Position numbers and translations under genes: made by a program. 9,517 bases of DNA from a virus. Taxonomy: Duplodnaviria; Heunggongvirae; Uroviricota; Caudoviricetes. The stretch is taken from the IMG/VR virus record IMGVR_UViG_2537562091_000001. The stretch is one strand, 5' to 3'. The notes beneath the pieces are model-generated. The model made no database searches, was not told the DNA's origin, and was given only the letters and a program-made list of their open reading frames with translations. Shown one piece after another: positions 1-9,517 of the stretch (its first letter is position 1; every line of letters starts with the position of its first letter).

Positions 1-206
1 GTCTTCCGTAGCCTGTCATACGCGTAAAACAGCCAGCGCTGGCGCGATTTAGCCCCGACATAGCCCCACTGTTCGTCCATTTCCGCGCAGACGATGACGT
101 CACTGCCCGGCTGTATGCGCGAGGTTACCGACTGCGGCCTGAGTTTTTTAAGTGACGTAAAATCGTGTTGAGGCCAACGCCCATAATGCGGGCTGTTGCC
201 CGGCAT
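1..206 (-). CDS. insB: IS1 InsB, 5' portion only (truncated by the window boundary)
   Basis: Minus-strand frame starting at the ATG at 206-204 reads [49 protein letters not shown]..., the IS1 InsB N-terminus; it overlaps the insA 3' end as in IS1. Confidence 0.8.
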
Positions 207-400
207 CCAACGCCATTCATGGCCATATCAATGATTTTCTGGTGCGTACCGGGTTGAGAAGCGGTGTAAGTGAACTGCAGTTGCCATGTTTTACGGCAGT
301 GAGAGCAGAGATAGCGCTGATGTCCGGCGGTGCTTTTGCCGTTACGCACCACCCCGTCAGTAGCTGAACAGGAGGGACAGCTGATAGAAACAGAAGCCAC
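125..400 (-). CDS. insA: IS1 InsA (transposition inhibitor / N-terminal part of InsAB' transposase), 91 aa
   Basis: ORF translation [39 protein letters not shown]...LKNSGRSR matches IS1 InsA as recalled; it lies inside the IS1 element at the expected distance from the inverted repeat. Confidence 0.93.
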
Positions 401-735
401 TGGAGCACCTCAAAAACACCATCATACACTAAATCAGTAAGTTGGCAGCATCACCGTATTGGGGTAGTAAATGAGCTATACAATCTTAATCATTTGTTAG
501 GTGAGAACTCTTGGTCGCAGATTCAAATACTGAAAATACGTGACAAATTATTATGAGCAAAATGGTGTATGTCACGTATTTTGAATGGTAGGTTAAAAAA
601 TAACACCGACTTTCGTAGGTATTACTAATAATAAAGCAGAGTTTTTAGATAGTATCAATGTGCTTTGTGTATATTGTGGCAAATAATTGAGTTGGGGGTA
701 CAATTGTGATTGCTTTTGCATGAACATTGCGCCTT

Positions 736-752
736 TATGCATAATGAGATAA
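736..752 (+). promoter_or_regulatory. Candidate extended -10 sigma70 promoter (TGcATAAT) upstream of ybcL
   Basis: tatgcataat at 736-745 gives a TGn plus CATAAT extended -10 about 55 bp upstream of the ybcL ATG; a plausible -35 is weak. Sequence inspection only. Confidence 0.25.
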
Positions 753-798
753 AGGAATATCAAATAAAATAACGATAGGTCATAACAAAGAGGTTTTT

Positions 799-1350
799 AT
801 GAAAACACTTATCGTTTCAACTGTATTGGCATTCATAACATTTTCTGCGCAGGCTGCAGCATTTCAGGTCACTAGTAATGAAATAAAAACAGGAGAGCAA
901 CTTACAACGTCTCATGTCTTTTCTGGATTTGGGTGTGAAGGTGGTAATACATCGCCCTCATTAACCTGGTCTGGTGTTCCTGAAGGTACCAAAAGCTTTG
1001 CCGTAACTGTATATGATCCAGATGCACCTACAGGCAGTGGTTGGTGGCATTGGACTGTTGTTAATATTCCAGCAACAGTAACATATTTGCCCGTTGATGC
1101 AGGGAGACGTGATGGAACAAAACTGCCGACTGGTGCTGTTCAAGGCCGAAATGATTTTGGCTATGCTGGGTTTGGTGGCGCATGTCCTCCTAAAGGAGAT
1201 AAACCACATCATTACCAGTTTAAAGTATGGGCTCTAAAAACTGAAAAGATTCCTGTAGATTCTAACTCCAGCGGAGCGTTAGTTGGTTATATGCTTAATG
1301 CTAATAAAATCGCAACCGCTGAGATAACACCAGTTTATGAGATAAAGTAG
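799..1350 (+). CDS. ybcL: Periplasmic PEBP/RKIP-family protein (UPF0098), DLP12 YbcL-like, 183 aa
   Basis: ATG at 799 preceded by aagagg; N-terminal signal peptide MKTLIVSTVLAFITFSAQA/AAFQ; translation matches YbcL as recalled. The gene is AT-rich compared with the lambda-like genes. Confidence 0.88.
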   Translation: MKTLIVSTVLAFITFSAQAAAFQVTSNEIKTGEQLTTSHVFSGFGCEGGNTSPSLTWSGVPEGTKSFAVTVYDPDAPTGSGWWHWTVVNIPATVTYLPVDAGRRDGTKLPTGAVQGRNDFGYAGFGGACPPKGDKPHHYQFKVWALKTEKIPVDSNSSGALVGYMLNANKIATAEITPVYEIK

Positions 1351-1359
1351 GGTGAGAGT

Positions 1360-2157
1360 ATGCTGGCAAGAGGTAAGACTAACTTAAAGATCGAAGAAAT
1401 ACGGATGCATAAACATCATGAGATTCATAGGGTTAAGCCTCTTATGCCAGCTTTGTGTCGTATCCGTCAGGGAAAGAAAGTTATCAATTGGGAGACGCAT
1501 ACTTTAACTGTTGATAATAATCAAATAATATTATTTCCTTGTGGTTATGAATTTTATATTGAGAATTATCCTGAAGCAGGGCTTTATCTTGCAGAAATGC
1601 TTTACTTACCCATTGATTTAATTGAGAGTTTCCAAAAACTTTATACGGTAACTGATCAAATACGTAACAAAACAAGTTTCTTTTTACCTCAGAATCCTGA
1701 GTTAATATATTGTTGGGAGCAACTAAAAACATCTGTTTCCCGAGGCTTCTCAACTAAAATTCAGGAGCACTTAGCAATGGGCGTTCTACTTTCGTTAGGA
1801 GTGAATCATGTTAATCATTTACTTTTATCATATAGTAAACAATCATTGATAAGTCGTTGTTATAACCTGCTGCTATCCGAACCCGGCACAAAATGGACAG
1901 CAAACAAGGTTGCTCGATATCTCTACATTTCTGTTTCTACATTACATCGCCGTCTAGCAAGCGAGGGGGTAAGTTTCCAAAGTATACTGGACGATGTGAG
2001 GTTAAATAATGCGTTGTCTGCTATACAAACGACGGTAAAACCTATAAGCGAGATTGCCAGAGAAAATGGTTATAAGTGTCCTTCTCGTTTTACTGAAAGA
2101 TTTCATAATCGTTTTAATATAACACCAAGAGAGATAAGAAAAGCTTCCAGAGAGTAA
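1360..2157 (+). CDS. ybcM: AraC/XylS-family transcriptional regulator, DLP12 YbcM-like, 265 aa
   Basis: Long ORF with a C-terminal AraC-type helix-turn-helix region ([46 protein letters not shown]...[19 protein letters not shown]); it starts 10 bp after the ybcL stop and is very AT-rich. Confidence 0.85.
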
Positions 2158-2221
2158 AAGTGTTTTAAGAAGGAGCAATTCTATCGATTTTGATTTTGGG
2201 AAATCAACACGGCATAATTAT

Positions 2222-2250
2222 GTCACCGGAGCCTGAACAACTCCGGTGAC
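2222..2250 (+). terminator. Perfect 10-bp inverted repeat (gtcaccggag / ctccggtgac, 9-nt loop) between ybcM and ybcN; possible weak terminator or protein-binding site
   Basis: The stem-loop is seen directly. It lies 65 bp after the ybcM stop, but the downstream T-tract is poor (ttctg), so a terminator role is uncertain. Confidence 0.3.
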
Positions 2251-2371
2251 TTCTGCGCTAAACGGGGACGTTTATGCGCACATACAATCCAAACTCTCTT
2301 CTCCCTTCACAGATGCAGAAATGCACCTGCAATTCTTTGCATCTAGCGTTTGACCTCTGCGGAGGTGAAGC

Positions 2372-2827
2372 GTGAACCTCTCACAAGACGGCATCAAATT
2401 ACATCGCGGCAACTTCACCGCTATCGGTCGGCAGATCCAGCCTTATCTGGAGGAGGGCAAATGCTTTCGCATGGTGCTTAAACCGTGGCGTGAGAAACGC
2501 AGTCTTTCCCAGAATGCACTCAGCCACATGTGGTACAGCGAAATCAGTGAATACCTCATCAGCAGGGGTAAAACGTTCGCCACTCCAGCTTGGGTAAAAG
2601 ATGCTCTCAAACACACATATCTCGGTTATGAAACCAAAGACCTGGTTGATGTCGTAACCGGTGATATCACCACTATCCAGTCGTTACGCCATACCTCCGA
2701 CCTTGATACCGGAGAGATGTATGTCTTCCTGTGTAAGGTTGAAGCCTGGGCGATGAATATTGGCTGCCACCTGACTATTCCGCAGAGCTGCGAGTTCCAG
2801 CTGCTGCGTGATAAGCAGGAGGCGTAA
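2372..2827 (+). CDS. ybcN: Phage nin-region protein YbcN (DNA base-flipping protein family), 151 aa, GTG start
   Basis: GTG at 2372 preceded by ggagg at 2361-2365; translation [21 protein letters not shown]... matches DLP12 YbcN as recalled; it sits at the start of the nin-like block. Confidence 0.85.
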
Positions 2828-2997
2828 TGGCTACACCGCTTATTCGTGTCATGAACGGACACATCTACAAAGTACCAAATCGTCGTAAGCGTAAGCCTGA
2901 GCTGAAACCATCCGAAATACCAACACTGCTCGGATATACCGCCAGCCTGGTTGATAAAAAATGGTTGCGACTGGCAGCTAGGAGGAATCATGGCTGA
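2827..2997 (+). CDS. ninE: NinE-family protein, 56 aa
   Basis: Short [59 protein letters not shown]; its start overlaps the ybcN stop (TAATG) and its end overlaps the ybcO start. This is the expected position of ninE in DLP12; it is absent from the ORF track because it is under 60 aa. Confidence 0.75.
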   Translation: MATPLIRVMNGHIYKVPNRRKRKPELKPSEIPTLLGYTASLVDKKWLRLAARRNHG

Positions 2998-3280
2998 TTT
3001 GAGAAAAGCAGCGCGTGGTCGGGAATGCCAGGTAAGAATCCCTGGCGTATGTAATGGCAATCCTGAAACGTCTGTACTGGCACATATCCGGCTGGCTGGA
3101 TTGTGCGGTACCGGTATCAAACCGCCAGACCTGATTGCCACCATTGCATGTTCTGCCTGTCACGACGAGATCGACCGTCGCACGCATTTTGTTGACGCTG
3201 GATATGCAAAAGAATGCGCGCTGGAAGGTATGGCGAGAACGCAGGTTATCTGGCTGAAAGAGGGGGTAATTAAGGCGTGA
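2990..3280 (+). CDS. ybcO: Cys-rich DUF1364-type putative nuclease YbcO, 96 aa
   Basis: ATG at 2990 preceded by a strong AGGAGG at 2980-2985; translation [23 protein letters not shown]...CSACHDE...; the track ORF from 2951 is an upstream TTG extension. Confidence 0.85.
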
Positions 3281-3639
3281 ATACCTACAATATCACATTA
3301 CCCTGGCCGCCGAGCAATAATCGCTATTACCGCCATAATCGCGGGCGCACGCACATCAGCGCAGAGGGGCAGGCATACCGCGAAAACGTCGCCCGAATCA
3401 TTAAAAACGCAATGCTGGATATCGGCCTGGCTATGCCTGTGAAAATCCGCATTGAGTGCCACATGCCGGATCGCCGTCGCCGTGACCTGGATAATCTGCA
3501 AAAAGCCGCTTTTGACGCACTCACTAAAGCAGGTTTCTGGCTGGATGATGCTCAGGTCGTTGATTACCGCGTTGTGAAGATGCCTGTTACCAAAGGTGGG
3601 AGGCTGGAACTGACCATCACCGAAATGGGGAATGAATGA
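3277..3639 (+). CDS. rusA: RusA Holliday-junction resolvase (cryptic prophage endonuclease), 120 aa, GTG start
   Basis: Translation [24 protein letters not shown]... contains the catalytic acidic residues D70, D72 and D91 ([10 protein letters not shown]...WLDDAQ); the start overlaps the ybcO stop (GTGA). Confidence 0.92.
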
Positions 3640-3776
3640 TGTTTGAGTTTAATATGGCAGAACTTCTTCGCCACCGCTGGATGCGCCTGCGCTTATATCG
3701 TTTCCCCAGTTCTGTTTTGACCGATTACCGAATACTGAGGAATTACGCCAAAACCCTGACAGGAGCAGGAGTATGA
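3636..3776 (+). CDS. ylcG: Small nin-region protein YlcG, 46 aa
   Basis: ATG at 3636 overlaps the rusA stop (ATGA); translation [46 protein letters not shown]; same position as ylcG in DLP12. Confidence 0.7.
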
Positions 3777-3861
3777 AGTCAGAGATAACAATCAACTAAT
3801 ACTGTTTTATTGATTTTTGCTTGTAATTGGCGTTCTGGTCTGATTTTTGTGGAGTAAGTTG

Positions 3862-4245
3862 ATGCGTGATATTCAGATGGTTCTTGAGCGTTGGGGAGCG
3901 TGGGCGGCTAATAATCATGAAGATGTGACCTGGTCGTCCATTGCCGCCGGTTTTAAGGGATTAATTACTTCAAAAGTAAAATCTCGCCCGCAATGTTGTG
4001 ACGATGACGCGATGATCATTTGCGGGTGCATGGCCCGTCTGAAAAAGAACAACAGCGATTTGCACGATTTATTAGTAGATTATTATGTAGTCGGTATGAC
4101 ATTCATGTCACTGGCAGGTAAGCATTGCTGCTCTGATGGTTATATCGGGAAAAGGTTACAGAAGGCTGAGGGCATAATTGAAGGGATGTTAATGGCATTA
4201 GATATCCGGTTAGAGATGGATATCGTTGTTAATAACTCTAATTAA
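3862..4245 (+). CDS. quuD: Late-gene antiterminator Q (phage 21/82-type), DLP12 QuuD, 127 aa
   Basis: ATG at 3862 preceded by ggag at 3851-3854; translation [24 protein letters not shown]... matches QuuD as recalled; the track start at 3847 is a TTG extension. It is the last gene of the nin-like block, as Q is in lambdoid phages. Confidence 0.88.
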
Positions 4246-4261
4246 TATGCCAATTGTTTAC

Positions 4262-4297
4262 TAAAAATTATTAAAAATGGGGCGTTGAGACGCCCCC
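4262..4297 (-). terminator. Rho-independent terminator on the minus strand (stem ggggcgt/acgcccc with tgag loop at 4279-4296, then a U-rich tract from 4278 to 4262)
   Basis: Minus-strand RNA would read GGGGGCGUCUCAACGCCCC followed by AUUUUUAAUAAUUUUU, a textbook intrinsic terminator. It lies about 140 bp downstream of the nmpC stop and at the predicted 3' end of the IpeX-like RNA. Confidence 0.7.
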
Positions 4298-4434
4298 AAA
4301 AATAAAGGGTAATATATAACAGAAGGTTTATATAGTTAGAAGCAAGGTTGTGCTTCTAAAGGAAGTGGCTTGAGGGAGCCACTTATATGTTGGGGAGGCA
4401 AAGCCTCCCGCAACATATCTTTTTCGTAATCAGA
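4268..4434 (-). ncRNA. ipeX: Candidate IpeX-like small RNA in the nmpC 3' region (multi-hairpin RNA ending at the terminator above); boundaries approximate
   Basis: Four consecutive stem-loops on one strand (4385-4418, 4363-4384, 4338-4357, 4279-4297) between the nmpC stop and the terminator U-tract. IpeX is a roughly 167-nt sRNA described at this position in DLP12; ends are not mapped here. Confidence 0.4.
4385..4426 (+). terminator. Long imperfect hairpin (atatgttggggaggc-aaa-gcctcccgcaacatat) followed by cttttt; candidate plus-strand terminator just before nmpC in antisense
   Basis: About 15-bp stem with a single bulge, followed by a T5 run on the plus strand. It could terminate rightward transcription leaving quuD, or it could simply be the 5' stem of the IpeX-like RNA. 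Confidence 0.35.
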
Positions 4435-5517
4435 TTAGAACTGATACACCAGACCTACAGCGACGATGTCGTCGGTATCAATACCAGCTGTTTTGGTAAA
4501 CTTACTATCGTCAATTAAGTTGATTTTGTAATCAACAAAAGTGGACATGTTTTTATTAAAGTAGTAAGTAGCACCGACATCGACATACTTGACTAAGTCT
4601 CGGTCACCATGAACACCAAGGTCTTTACCTTTTGACTGAAGGTAAGCAACAGATGGTCGCAGACCGAAGTCAAACTGATATTGTGCTACTGCTTCAAAGT
4701 TTTGTGCTTTGTTTGCAATATGGTTATTACCAAAAACGGTCATATTCTGAGTTTCAGAATATGTGGTAGCCAGATAGATATTGTTCGCATCATATTTCAG
4801 GCCTGCAGCCCATACTTCCGCATTTTTGCCGGAGGCATTGAATTTGCTCTTACCATAGGCGACCTGACCGTCAGTGCGATCTGATTTAGCATAGGTTGCA
4901 CCCACGCCGAATCCTTCATACTCATAAGTAGTGGAGAAACCGAAACCATCACCATTGGCTTCAGTTACGTCAGTGCGGTCATTTTTACCCTGATACTGAG
5001 CAGCAAAGTTCAGGCCATCGACCAGACCAAAGAAGTCGTTGTTACGATAGGTTGCAACACCAGTGGTGCGACCAGTCATGAACACATCTGTTTGGGTCCA
5101 GGTATCGCCACCGAATTCTGGCAGAACGTCAGTCCACGCACCGATGTCGTATGCTACACCGTAGTTACGGCCGTAATCGATTGAGCCGTAGTCACCGAAT
5201 TTCAGGCCTGCAAATGCAAGACGGGTTTTGTCTTTGGAGGAACCTTGAGATTCAGCGCGGTTGCCTTTGAATTCATATTCCCACTGACCGAAACCAGTCA
5301 GTTGATCGTTGATTTGGGTTTCACCTTTGAAGCCAAGACGGGCATAAGTAGTATCACCATCATCTGCATCGTTAGAGGAAAAGTAGTGCTTGGCATTAAC
5401 TTTCCCGTACAGATCCAGCTTGTTACTGTCTTTATTATAAATTTCAGCTGCCTGAGCAGACATCGCCATCAGTACTGATGCAGCTACAGCAGAAATTGCC
5501 ACTGTTAATTTTTTCAT
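4435..5517 (-). CDS. nmpC: Outer-membrane general porin of the OmpC/PhoE/NmpC family, intact, 360 aa
   Basis: Signal peptide [29 protein letters not shown]; porin-like beta-barrel sequence ending in the C-terminal VGLVYQF with terminal Phe; uninterrupted frame on the strand opposite to the surrounding phage genes. Confidence 0.9.
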
Positions 5518-6105
5518 CGTGAGCCCTTTTTTTTGAACTATTATTAAAAAATGATGTCACTGCGCGATAAATATTCATCTAATCAATGTGATTATTTCAA
5601 GATGTAAGTTTTAGTTTCTCATTTAATTTGTGAAGTAGATCTCTATTTTTATCTGAACTTTTTCTATCGAAACCTATTTATGGCTCTTATTTGAACAAAA
5701 ATAAACCTATTAGCTAATTTATATTAATGGCTGTTATTTATGGGGGTTCTATAATTCGGTGGTTTAATTTAAATCAACTAAAAATAACGCCGGAAATTAT
5801 TTATTGGTTATTTGTTGAGGTTTTCTTATATATTTGTGGTGGTGTTTTGAACACTCGGTAGCATTCTCATAAATATCATTCAGTGGTTTACGTACGTAAA
5901 AAATTGGTTATGCTGTTAAGAGTGGTTACTTCGTCACACAGCTTAAACCCGCCGTCGAGCTGGTTTTTCCATTTTTTGAGTCTCGATATTAGCTGATAAC
6001 TCAATACCTGAGTTATTCACTGACTCCGAGTCTGTTACGTTTCTGCTTTTTTGCGATACGTTGTATTCCCTCAATTTACACCCGCTTTGTCTGCGAGGTG
6101 GGGTT

Positions 6106-6321
6106 ATGAAATCCATGGATAAGTTAACAACGGGTGTCGCCTATGGCACCTCAGCAGGTAGTGCCGGTTACTGGTTTTTACAGCTGCTCGATAAAGTCAC
6201 GCCCTCACAGTGGGCAGCAATAGGTGTGCTGGGTAGCCTGGTATTTGGCCTGCTGACGTACCTGACAAACCTTTATTTCAAGATTAAAGAAGATAAGCGC
6301 AAGGCTGCGAGAGGTGAATAA
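6106..6321 (+). CDS. essD: Phage-21-type class II holin (pinholin S21-like) with dual-start motif, 71 aa
   Basis: ATG at 6106 preceded by gaggtg at 6095-6100; translation [26 protein letters not shown]...[19 protein letters not shown] resembles S21 as recalled; Met1 and Met4 form the holin/antiholin dual start; the track start at 6061 is a TTG extension. Confidence 0.88.
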
Positions 6322-6818
6322 TGCCTCCATCATTACGAAAAGCCGTTGCTGCTGCTATTGGTGGCGGAGCAATTGCTATAGCATCAGTGTTAATCACTGG
6401 CCCAAGTGGTAACGATGGTCTGGAAGGTGTCAGCTACATACCATACAAAGATATTGTTGGTGTATGGACTGTATGTCACGGGCATACAGGAAAAGACATC
6501 ATGCTCGGTAAAACGTATACCAAAGCAGAATGCAAAGCCCTCCTGAATAAAGACCTTGCCACGGTCGCCAGACAAATTAACCCGTACATAAAAGTTGATA
6601 TACCGGAAACAACGCGCGGCGCTCTTTACTCGTTCGTTTACAACGTGGGCGCTGGCAATTTCAGAACATCGACGCTTCTTCGCAAAATAAACCAGGGCGA
6701 TATCAAAGGCGCATGTGATCAGCTACGTCGCTGGACATATGCTGGCGGTAAGCAATGGAAAGGTCTCATGACTCGTCGTGAGATTGAGCGTGAAATCTGT
6801 TTGTGGGGTCAGCAATGA
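6321..6818 (+). CDS. rrrD: SAR endolysin (T4-lysozyme-type muramidase with N-terminal signal-anchor-release domain), 165 aa
   Basis: Start overlaps the essD stop (TAATG); Gly/Ala-rich weakly hydrophobic N-terminus [20 protein letters not shown] typical of SAR domains; E35 and D44 catalytic residues present; matches R21/RrrD as recalled. Confidence 0.9.
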
Positions 6819-7276
6819 ACAGAGTAACCGCGATTATCTCCGCTCTGGTTATCTGCATCATCGTCTGCCTGTCATGGGCTGTTAATCATTACCGTGATAA
6901 CGCCATTACCTACAAAGCCCAGCGCGACAAAAATGCCAGAGAACTGAAGCTGGCGAACGCGGCAATTACTGACATGCAGATGCGCCAGCGTGATGTTGCT
7001 GCACTGGATGAAAAATACACGAAGGAGTTAGCTAATGCGAAAGCTGAAAATGATGCTCTGCGTGATGATGTTGCCGCTGGTCGTCGTCGGTTGCACATCA
7101 AAGCAGTCTGTCAGTCAGTGCGTGAAGCCACCACCGCCTCCGGCGTGGATAATGCAGCCTCCCCCCGACTGGCAGACACCGCTGAACGGGATTATTTCAC
7201 CCTCAGAGAGAGGCTGATCACTATGCAAAAACAACTGGAAGGAACCCAGAAGTATATTAATGAGCAGTGCAGATAG
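6815..7276 (+). CDS. rzpD: Spanin inner-membrane subunit Rz (i-spanin), 153 aa
   Basis: ATG at 6815 overlaps the rrrD stop (ATGA); N-terminal transmembrane helix [18 protein letters not shown] followed by a coiled-coil-like region; nearly identical to lambda Rz as recalled. Confidence 0.9.
7035..7217 (+). CDS. rzoD: Spanin outer-membrane lipoprotein subunit Rz1 (o-spanin), embedded in the +1 frame of Rz, 60 aa
   Basis: ATG at 7035 preceded by aaggag at 7022-7027; lipobox VVGC followed by a Pro-rich mature region ([16 protein letters not shown]); lies entirely within rzpD, as Rz1 does within Rz in lambda. Confidence 0.88.
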
Positions 7277-7280
7277 AGCT

Positions 7281-7296
7281 GCCCATATCGATGGGC
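7281..7296. terminator. Short GC-rich hairpin (gcccat-atcg-atgggc) between the convergent rzpD and borD genes; possible weak bidirectional terminator
   Basis: 6-bp stem seen between the two stop codons at 7276 and 7308; no clear U-tract on either strand. Confidence 0.25.
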
Positions 7297-7307
7297 AACT
7301 CATGCAA

Positions 7308-7601
7308 TTATTGTGAGCAATACACACGCGCTTCCAGCGGAGTATAAATGCCTAAAGTAATAAAACCGAGCAATCCATTTACGAATGTTTGCTGGGTTTC
7401 TGTTTTAACAACATTTTCTGCGCCGCCACAAATTTTGGCTGCATCAACAGTTTTCTCCTGTCCAATTCCCGAAACGAAGAAGTGATGGGTGATGGTTTCC
7501 TTTGGTGTTACTGCTGTCGGTTTGTTTCCAACAGTAAACGTCTGTTGAGCACATCCTGTAATAAGCATTGCCAGAGCGGCAGAAAACAACATTTTTTTCA
7601 T
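7308..7601 (-). CDS. borD: Bor-family outer-membrane lipoprotein (serum-resistance protein homologue), 97 aa
   Basis: Start at the ATG giving MKKMLFSAALAMLITGCAQQ... (lipobox ITGC); near-identical to lambda Bor as recalled; the track ORF from 7649 is an N-terminal extension. Confidence 0.88.
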   Translation of the reverse strand: MKKMLFSAALAMLITGCAQQTFTVGNKPTAVTPKETITHHFFVSGIGQEKTVDAAKICGGAENVVKTETQQTFVNGLLGFITLGIYTPLEARVYCSQ

Positions 7602-7960
7602 CTTATTATCCTGCATTGTTAAAAACGGCAGAATCCTATGTGACAACAATTAAACGATAGTTAAATGGATTGATGAAAATTAAAACTATATAGGTGGATG
7701 CTCAGCCTATTGGAGGAGGGGGGCACTCAGAATCCTGTGGAATGAAATAAACCGCTCTTTCTGTCCATTACCCTTTTAGCTGCGCTGTATCGTCGCCGTA
7801 TTCCCGCATTAACCATGACCGTAGCCCGACGGGGAATTCCTTCTGCGTGAGTGTGCGGGAATAATCAAAAACGATGCACACCGGGTTTTACTGTGCTGAC
7901 AGACGCAGGGTTACCCTCATAGTCGCTTTTCCGGTGCGATGGTGGAAGAAACCGGGATGT

Positions 7961-8155
7961 TTATTCATCATCACTCTGGATTGATGTATATGCTCTCTTT
8001 TCTGACGTTAGTCTCCGACGGCAGGCTTCAATGACCCAGGCTGAGAAATTCCCAGACCCTTTTTGCTCAAGAGCGATGTTAATTTGTTCAATCATTTGGT
8101 TAGGAAAGCGGATGTTGCGGGTTGTTGTTCTGCGGGTTCTGTTCTTAGTTGACAT
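7961..8155 (-). CDS. ylcI: Small 64-aa protein with a predicted ribbon-helix-helix-like DNA-binding pattern; by position the ylcI (DUF3950) equivalent
   Basis: ORF MSTKNRTRRTTTRNIRFPNQMIEQINIALEQKGSGNFSAWVIEACRRRL...; a basic N-terminus, then a beta-strand-like RNIRFP followed by two helices, resembles Arc/CopG-type folds (inference). It sits between bor and cos, as ylcI does in DLP12. Confidence 0.55.
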   Translation of the reverse strand: MSTKNRTRRTTTRNIRFPNQMIEQINIALEQKGSGNFSAWVIEACRRRLTSEKRAYTSIQSDDE

Positions 8156-8319
8156 GAGGTTGCCCCGTATTCAGTGTCGCTGATTTGTATTGTCTGAAGT
8201 TGTTTTTACGTTAAGTTGATGCAGATCAATTAATACGATACCTGCGTCATAATTGATTATTTGACGTGGTTTGATGGCGTAGATGCACGTTGTGACATGT
8301 AGATGATAATTATTATCAT

Positions 8320-8543
8320 TTTGCGGGTCCTTTCCGGCGATCCGACAGGTTACGGGGCGGCGACCTCGCGGGTTTTCGCTATTTATGAAAATTTTCCGGT
8401 TTAAGGCATTTCCGTTCTTCTTCGTCGTAACTTAATGTTTTTATTTAAAATACCCCCTGAAAAGAAAGGAAACGACAGGTGCTGAAAACGAGCTTTTGGG
8501 CCTCTGTCGTTTCCTTTCTCTGTTTTTGGCCGTGGAATGAACA
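8320..8543. other. Lambda-type cos site: cosQ/nick region, cosN 12-nt cohesive-end sequence gggcggcgacct at 8355-8366, and cosB (terminase/IHF binding region) extending to the nohD start
   Basis: Sequence around 8321-8540 matches the joined right and left ends of lambda as recalled (tccgacaggttacg | gggcggcgacct | cgcgggttttcgctatttatgaaaattttccgg...), with a few substitutions; the Nu1-like ORF starts about 190 bp downstream, as in lambda. Confidence 0.85.
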
Positions 8544-9095
8544 ATGGAAGTCAACAAAAAGCAGCTGGCTGACATTTTCGGTGCGAGTATCCGTACCATT
8601 CAGAACTGGCAGGAACAGGGAATGCCCGTTCTGCGAGGCGGTGGCAAGGGTAATGAGGTGCTTTATGACTCTGCCGCCGTTATAAGATGGTATGCCGAAA
8701 GGGATGCTGAAATTGAGAACGAAAAGCTGCGCCGGGAAGTTGAAGAACTGCGGCAGGCCAGCGAGACAGATCTCCAGCCAGGGACTATTGAGTACGAACG
8801 CCATCGACTTACGCGTGCGCAGGCCGACGCACAGGAGCTGAAAAATGCCAGAGACTCCGCTGAAGTGGTGGAAACCGCATTCTGTACTTTCGTGCTGTCG
8901 CGGATCGCAGGTGAAATTGCCAGTATTCTCGACGGGATCCCCCTGTCGGTGCAGCGGCGTTTTCCGGAACTGGAAAACCGACATGTTGATTTCCTGAAAC
9001 GGGATATCATCAAAGCCATGAACAAAGCAGCCGCGCTGGATGAACTGATACCGGGGTTATGGGCGTTGGCCTCAACACGATTTTACGTCACTTAA
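8544..9095 (+). CDS. nohD: Terminase small subunit Nu1 homologue, C-terminally truncated: Nu1-like residues 1 to about 171, then 11 codons and a stop read from IS1 DNA (fusion ORF of 183 aa)
   Basis: Translation [46 protein letters not shown]... follows lambda Nu1 (winged-helix N-terminus) up to ...[10 protein letters not shown], then diverges into [11 protein letters not shown] encoded by IS1 sequence; no terminase large-subunit gene follows. Confidence 0.85.
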
Positions 9096-9517
9096 AAAAC
9101 TCAGGCCGCAGTCGGTAACCTCGCGCATACAGCCGGGCAGTGACGTCATCGTCTGCGCGGAAATGGACGAACAGTGGGGCTATGTCGGGGCTAAATCGCG
9201 CCAGCGCTGGCTGTTTTACGCGTATGACAGGCTACGGAAGACGGTTGTTGCGCACGTATTCGGTGAACGCACGATGGCGACGCTGGGGCGTCTTATGAGC
9301 CTGCTGTCACCCTTTGACGTGGTGATATGGATGACGGATGGCTGGCCGCTGTATGAATCCCGCCTGAAGGGAAAGCTGCACGTAATCAGCAAGCGATATA
9401 CGCAGCGAATTGAGCGGCAGTAACCTGAATCTGAGGCAGCACCTGGCACGGCTGGGACGGAAGTCGCTGTCGTTCTCAAAATCGGTGGAGCTGCATGACA
9501 AAGTCATCGGGCATTAT
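9059..9517 (+). mobile_element. IS1 fragment lacking its left end (IS1 coordinates about 283 to 743), joined directly to nohD; runs to the window end
   Basis: From 9059 the sequence matches internal IS1 (atgggcgttggcctcaacacgattttacgtcacttaaaaaactcaggccgc...), with no terminal inverted repeat at the junction; positions 9059 to about 9243 are the reverse complement of positions about 186 to 1. Confidence 0.9.
9061..9423 (+). pseudogene. insB: IS1 insB remnant: lacks the insA-insB 5' region and carries an apparent +1 frameshift near 9420 relative to canonical InsB
   Basis: InsB frame reads [17 protein letters not shown]...[10 protein letters not shown] then stops at 9421-9423, while the canonical InsB C-terminus [31 protein letters not shown] continues in the next frame (ggcagtaacc here versus ggcataacc as recalled). 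Confidence 0.6.

Follow-up and report, generated by a model that had tools for sequence, protein, structure and literature searches.

The porin gene nmpC (lc) of this DLP12/PA-2-type prophage very probably forms an uninterrupted lysogenic-conversion cassette that is placed between the late antiterminator gene Q (quuD) and the late promoter PR' and is transcribed independently of the late operon. The cassette (~4222-5886 of the window, by which we mean the whole 9,517-nt stretch of DNA analysed) would consist of an AT-rich upstream region with its own promoter, the porin ORF and an IpeX 3'UTR with its own terminator. Its independence from the late operon would follow from its lying upstream of PR' and facing the other way. 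QuuD would act in trans at PR'/qut (5887 to ~5945), and the Q-modified polymerase would read rightwards into essD-rrrD-rzpD, leaving nmpC untraversed. If the cassette is expressed, NmpC would be placed in the outer membrane, and IpeX from the 3'UTR would lower host OmpC/OmpF, resulting in a porin swap. We infer the start sites, the Q dependence, the expression of NmpC and the activity of IpeX in this strain from its sequence. Most likely PR' has been displaced 1.6 kb from Q by the cassette, which would explain how a conversion gene can sit amid the late control region and be neither driven nor disturbed by late transcription. Major features of the window are summarized in Table 1.

Table 1. 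Features of the prophage window, in order of position
Feature	Coordinates	Strand	Basis
Left genes: ybcL (799-1350), ybcM, ybcN, ninE, ybcO, rusA (3277-3639)			ORFs, Pfam
quuD, Q-type late antiterminator, 127 aa	3859..4245	+	Pfam Phage_antitermQ, E=3.5e-53
nmpC 3'UTR, fitting IpeX RNA; ~167 nt, five stem-loops, Rho-independent terminator	4270..4437	-	Fold, literature description
Predicted intrinsic terminator for quuD-side transcripts; 15-bp bulged stem (4385-4418), then CTTTTT	4385..4424	+	Fold; function inferred
nmpC (lc-type porin), intact, 360 aa	4435..5517	-	ORF list, Pfam, alignment to PA-2 Lc
nmpC signal peptide coding part	5449-5517	-	Matches PA-2 sig_peptide
nmpC upstream/regulatory region, ~27% GC	5518..5886	.	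Composition
RpoE-type promoter-like sequence; TGAACTA, 16 nt, TCACT (5534-5561)	5534..5567	+	Sequence reading; coincides with implied +1
PR' homolog; -35 TTTACG (5887-5892), 16-nt spacer, -10 TATGCT (5909-5914)	5887..5914	+	Alignment to annotated PR'
Late/lysis-operon leader (predicted)	5921..6105	+	Alignments and folding
Lysis cassette: essD (6106-6321), rrrD (6321-6818), rzpD (6815-7276), embedded rzoD (7035-7217)	6106..7276	+	ORFs, Pfam
Right genes: borD (7308-7601, -), nohD (8544-9095)			ORFs, Pfam

The presence of a porin gene at 4435-5517 is confirmed far beyond chance. The original prediction described its ORF as uninterrupted from the signal peptide to the C-terminal Phe and as lying in antisense between Q and the lysis cassette, and both points are borne out. 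The ORF starts with ATG, has no internal stops in its 360 codons and ends in ...GLVYQF, and the gene order, quuD (+), nmpC (-), essD/rrrD/rzpD (+), is that of K-12, 434B, PA-2 and 36 phage records. Residues 29-360 cover the whole Pfam Porin_1 profile (PF00267, positions 1-337 of 337; E=1.9e-151), scoring 504.7 bits against a curated Pfam cut-off of 23.7. Residues 24-360 align to the solved chains of OmpC, OmpK36, PhoE and OmpF with E values down to 5.8e-137, and the mature chain is similar in sequence from end to end to the solved OmpC/OmpK36 trimers (E=5.8e-137). The 23-aa N-terminal Sec signal peptide has an A-x-A cleavage site followed by AEIY and is identical to the 23-aa sig_peptide in the PA-2 lc record. 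The translation also carries the PEFGG loop-3 motif and the C-terminal Phe (...VYQF). By family, NmpC is a general bacterial porin, predicted to be a trimeric 16-strand beta-barrel that acts as a diffusion pore. OmpC, OmpF, PhoE and Salmonella OmpD belong to the same Pfam family and align with it over the full length, but nmpC differs from the host porins in being phage-borne, IpeX-linked and located away from the chromosomal ompC locus.

The late promoter of this Q family can be placed by homology on the essD side of nmpC. QuuD, whose start in the ORF list is an upstream TTG (3847), is 80% identical to Q of the Stx1 phage Ss-VASD and of H-19B and 77% identical to Q of 933W and VT2-Sakai; the homology of quuD to the Stx-phage Q genes ends at about codon 121. 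The stretch ~5886-5970 of the window can be aligned with what the records of phages 06-3462 and Ss-VASD annotate as "pR' putative late promoter" and as the first terminator. In the Stx phages, the match to 5886-5968 lies directly 3' of Q and overlaps its 3' end, whereas here the PR' homolog does not abut the Q 3' end and the porin cassette lies between the two. The block stands 190 bp upstream of essD and 1.64 kb from the quuD stop, a distance that is positional only, because Q acts in trans. It is also conserved in K-12, BL21, PA-2, 434B, SfII and PhiR55_1. Transcription from the PR' homolog would start near A5921.

The two noncoding flanks of nmpC were searched separately against phage genomes. 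The PR' segment (5886-5968) was found in 355 phage records, mostly porin-less Stx phages, and a QuuD-family Q in 400, while the Q-nmpC spacer (4230-4440) was found in only 36, all of them porin carriers. By these counts, the PR' block is associated with this Q family, and the spacer is associated with the porin. No PR' homology was found when the spacer was searched against the phage genomes. The annotated promoter in the family can itself be set against published data. In phage 06-3462 the promoter is annotated at 1502-1529 and a terminator at 1562-1584, and a second annotated terminator stands 258 nt from the promoter, a distance that matches exactly the length of the PR'-tR' transcript determined by Term-seq for the Sakai Stx phages (PMC7547250). 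This agreement supports the annotated promoter position in the Stx-phage family. The hexamers of the PR' homolog are weak (8/12 consensus matches), and the source records themselves label the Stx-phage PR' promoters as "putative". Consensus scans for sigma-70 promoters and terminators (built-in, relaxed) gave no discrimination in this AT-rich DNA, so PR' was placed by homology. With the PR' homolog at 5887-5970, beyond the porin, the original prediction that late transcription from near quuD would have to cross nmpC in antisense, with possible interference between porin and lysis genes, is not supported, and late transcription modified by Q most likely begins past nmpC.

The -35 element of PR' falls within a 14-bp perfect palindrome, TTTACGTACGTAAA (5887-5900). 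The Stx phages have TTTACGATCGTAAA at this site, which is also a perfect palindrome with a different centre. Since the symmetry is perfect in spite of the different centre, the change is compensatory, and the palindrome may be a candidate binding site for this Q family.

Published work on DLP12 also bears on where the lysis genes are transcribed from. The DLP12 SRRz/Rz1 operon has been described as under the control of a phage Q-type antiterminator, RpoE and Hha, and its lysis-promoter reporter was a PCR fragment numbered -121 to +650 (PMC7918800). On the window the fragment runs from 5445 to ~6228 and leaves out nearly all of nmpC (forward primer at 5445-5464; reverse primer, with a one-base typo, at ~6210-6228). 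With the forward primer at 5445 taken as -121, the published +1 falls near 5566, at the end of the RpoE-type promoter-like sequence in Table 1, which we take to be the essDp of Rueggeberg 2015. The published numbering and the PR' homolog thus imply different starts, near 5566 and near 5921, respectively. DLP12 may use the former, the PR' homolog at 5887-5914, or both. Seen from nmpC, both candidate starts lie past its start codon, towards essD, so the porin ORF would not have to be crossed by Q-dependent late transcription. A promoter near 5566 would stand back-to-back with the nmpC promoter region, so that any interplay would be one of divergent promoters, not of antisense transcription across nmpC. 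A genomic-SELEX paper on RpoD has no entry for the spacer. For the interval from insH to essD, a paper on the minor sigma factors lists nothing but an RpoS-holoenzyme peak, too coarse a signal for locating a promoter.

Consensus scans did not locate the nmpC promoter within 5518-5886. This region is 92% identical to that of PA-2 and 99.7% identical to that of BL21. The PA-2 record annotates CRP-type sites, of which one (misc_binding) could be placed in the window, as an exact match at 5626-5646. In addition, nmpC mRNA has been described as a target of RybB (PMC3333887). Together with the 27% GC of the upstream region, these features would suit a gene that is intact but transcriptionally quiet in its host, through AT-rich silencing or through catabolite or temperature control, and that contributes little to the outer membrane under laboratory conditions. 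Such silence is possible, though we think it somewhat doubtful. PA-2 Lc, whose upstream region is so similar, was reportedly an expressed lysogen protein in the PA-2 work of the 1970s-80s. Moreover, ipeX RNA has been detected in clinical isolates (PMC7177473), which also speaks against a quiet nmpC.

The spacer between Q and nmpC appears to be part of the cassette. Read as the minus strand, 4437-4262 folds with a dG of -63.4 kcal/mol (z = -10.0), and 0 of 200 shuffled sequences were as stable. The fold ends in a terminator whose stem (4296-4279) reads GGGGCGTCTCAACGCCCC and is followed by ATTTTT, giving a 3'UTR of ~165-168 nt compared with the 167 nt reported for IpeX. Of the 189 bases of the spacer, one differs from K-12 and one from PA-2. 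The nmpC 3'UTR therefore fits the described IpeX RNA, although a permissive Rfam search covering the whole window returned no match to an IpeX model. IpeX represses ompC and ompF (PMC5069750; PMC3333887). Because nmpC and its 3'UTR are contiguous in the window, the intact copy would be expected to yield both NmpC and IpeX. Going by the cited descriptions, the interference to expect would be with the host porins OmpC and OmpF and not with the lysis genes.

The opposite strand of the spacer is also highly structured. The plus strand of 4243-4437 folds with a dG of -66.9 kcal/mol (z = -5.8), and it contains the predicted terminator for quuD-side transcripts, a stem that a simple terminator scanner missed owing to its bulge. 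From the positions and strand specificity of the two predicted terminators, the quuD RNA (ending at ~4424) and the nmpC-ipeX RNA (ending at ~4270) would share ~155 nt of perfect complementarity, spanning IpeX, at their convergent 3' ends. If one were strongly transcribed, it could then destabilise or sequester the other, and in intact phages N-antiterminated early transcription could run antisense into nmpC. The near invariance of the spacer, next to an ORF that is 86.5% identical to lc, is in keeping with such interference, but it is equally explained by the function of IpeX and its terminator. The argument is purely structural, and in a prophage without an early region strong plus-strand transcription through quuD is not expected. 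We regard interference at these ends as unlikely. Equally tentative, and if anything less probable, is a model in which the nested ends make the quuD 3'UTR a ~155-nt perfect antisense to IpeX and couple the level of Q to porin/IpeX through RNA degradation or sequestration. If true, the quuD/IpeX overlap would be a different form of the interference that was suspected.

The spacer is also where a promoter beside quuD, as assumed in the original prediction, would have to lie. A late promoter just downstream of quuD, as in lambda, from which Q-modified transcription would pass antisense through nmpC and cause porin/lysis interference, is highly improbable: PR' does abut Q in lambda and the Stx phages, a relaxed scan picks up a single weak match on the plus strand of the spacer (TTGAGA, 19 nt, TAATAT, 4285-4315) and Q-modified polymerase could in principle pass the spacer hairpins, but that match has a 19-nt spacing and a -35 inside a terminator stem, the spacer has no homology to any PR' and is confined to porin carriers (36 records), the PR' block of this Q family is at 5887-5970 and the published lysis-promoter fragment starts only at 5445.

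A porin gene between Q and the lysis genes has long been known from phage PA-2. Its lc gene (GenBank J02580) has the same place and orientation between Q and the lysis genes as nmpC in the window, and the Q-side spacer and PR' block are 99.5% and 100% identical, respectively. Over the ORF the two share 86.5% of their DNA and 91% of their protein sequence (331/365). The first 180 residues, including the signal peptide, are essentially identical, and NmpC of the window is 5 residues shorter, with a few differing patches in the C-terminal half. Between residues ~180 and 345 (4435-4980 of the window), the differences from the K-12/PA-2 porin consist of short patches and two small deletions totalling 5 residues. 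We suspect that these variable patches are surface loops. The DLP12 (qsr') prophage of K-12 has the same backbone, spacer and PR' block, and its quuD is 100% identical in DNA sequence. It differs in having IS5 after codon 346 of nmpC, whereas the prophage in the window is further truncated by IS1 on both sides.

The Stx phages, whose Q is of the same family and whose PR' is homologous, also carry accessory cargo between Q and the lysis cassette, namely stx and other morons placed downstream of PR'/tR'. However, stx follows PR', is read in the sense direction and belongs to the late-transcribed genes, while the porin cassette precedes PR' and faces the other way, which would leave it uncoupled from late transcription. 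The left edge of the cassette is at ~4222, about codon 121 of Q, and its right edge at ~5886, where the homology of other phages resumes at the -35. Other cargo occupies the gap between Q and PR' in PhiR55_1 (a 148-aa antisense gene), SfII (two antisense genes) and phiP27 (a sense-strand GIY-YIG gene). None of the antisense cargo genes had a match in a Pfam search. The variety of this cargo suggests that the Q-PR' gap is a recurrent cargo site. Another antisense outer-membrane cargo gene occurs at 1110-2069 of phage 434B, a hybrid that acquired a DLP12 segment. This gene, which stands just upstream of that segment and beside an N-terminal fragment of lambda Q, encodes a lipid A deacylase of the LpxR family (Pfam E=6.8e-40).

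The intact cassette is widespread. In 2393 of 5426 complete E. coli genomes, a 2.6-kb block from Q through the porin to S and R reaches a coverage of at least 80%, and in many natural isolates it is 100% identical. The nmpC ORF by itself reaches this coverage in 2503 of the 5426, nearly always as one uninterrupted piece. Among phages, 36 records have the whole block without a break, at 92-97% identity; they include induced and plaque-forming lambdoid phages. The exact NmpC protein occurs on at least 1000 public contigs, and its 90% cluster has 2741 members, some titled "outer membrane porin protein LC". An intact nmpC is therefore not unusual; it is an already known lysogenic-conversion moron in its common form. 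The suggestion that this copy may be expressible is reasonable but not new, as the intact allele is the common natural state. The practical gain is one of annotation: RefSeq names the gene "porin OmpC", yet this "ompC" is the phage porin nmpC/lc with an IpeX 3'UTR. In the many natural isolates that carry it, an intact nmpC-ipeX could change outer-membrane permeability, the display of phage receptors and the levels of OmpC/OmpF.

The K-12 and B laboratory strains have each lost nmpC-ipeX through an insertion sequence. The original prediction was right that K-12 nmpC is broken by IS5. The K-12 record annotates the gene as a pseudogene split into two fragments, IS5B standing 58 bp from its 3' end, and the text of the phage 434B record reads "IS5 insertion after codon 346". 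Splicing IS5 out of the K-12 sequence restores a 365-aa ORF; the actual frame enters IS5 and stops at 355 aa. Compared with the K-12 IS5 site, the window has no insertion, and at codon 346 it also lacks the TTAG/CTAA target (acc aaa aca, against act aaa gca in K-12). IS5 in K-12 parts the nmpC ORF and promoter from the 3'UTR, while in the window all are contiguous. BL21(DE3) has, at 5480-7339 of its own record, the same nmpC allele as the window, with flanks 99.7-100% identical, but split by IS1, an inactivation independent of the IS5 of K-12. IS1 lies inside nmpC in both BL21 and REL606, and the left IS1 junction of the window is missing from both. Identity to K-12 is 99.0% over 456-4476 and only 91% over 4510-7655. 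The mosaic junction (4476-4510) falls in the 3' end of nmpC, where K-12 has IS5.

Downstream of the PR' homolog, the predicted leader begins with a conserved initial transcribed segment, AGTGGTTACTTCGTCACACAG (TAAGAGTGGTTACTTCG.CACACAG in the alignment). It contains a first hairpin with a T run (5939-5975) and, beyond it, a long second one (5979-6033) that ends in a U-rich tail. The homolog of the first in 06-3462 is annotated as a "possible rho-independent terminator"; the first hairpin reads GAGCTGG in the window, PA-2, BL21 and TUM17668, and GAGCGGG, which makes a perfect stem, in K-12 and 434B. These two structures with their U runs (within 5939-6052) are the tR' candidates, the first being mismatched in this allele. 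The mapped tR' of the Stx phages at +258 has no counterpart in the leader of the window. The leader was also considered as a homolog of the StxS RNA and rejected, since only the first ~50 nt are shared and not the active 74-nt 3' fragment. The lysis genes behind it match Phage_holin_2_1 (2e-35), Phage_lysozyme (1.3e-45) and Phage_lysis (4.3e-54) in Pfam, and essD encodes a P21-type holin.

The ORF list and Pfam scans identify the window as a DLP12-type defective lambdoid prophage. Both of its ends are IS1 (1-455 and 9059-9517, with InsA at 125-400 on the minus strand and InsB from 9163 on the plus strand), and the homology to K-12 DLP12 runs from 456 to 9058, ending inside nohD. The flanking IS1 copies indicate that the prophage has been cut down, having lost int through ybcK on one side and everything after nohD on the other. 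No member of the complete-genome collection matched the whole window with both IS1 junctions. A segment of ~1.3 kb that carries ybcV-ybcW in K-12 is absent from the window (7656-7943), so that borD and ylcI are only 288 bp apart. The same arrangement is seen in BL21 and TUM17668, whose borD homolog goes under the name "iss" (increased serum survival) in RefSeq. A tRNA scan of the window was empty, and hence tRNA cargo like that of the Stx phages was not found. The sole Rfam match in the window, mir-578 at 8460-8522 (E=0.91), is due to chance and was rejected; the matched sequence, between cosN and nohD, is an inverted repeat made up of CGTTTCCTTTCT-type sequences. This repeat resembles the terminase-binding sites of cosB, rather than an RNA gene. 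The exact core of lambda cosN, GGGCGGCGACCT, is present at 8355-8366, upstream of nohD.
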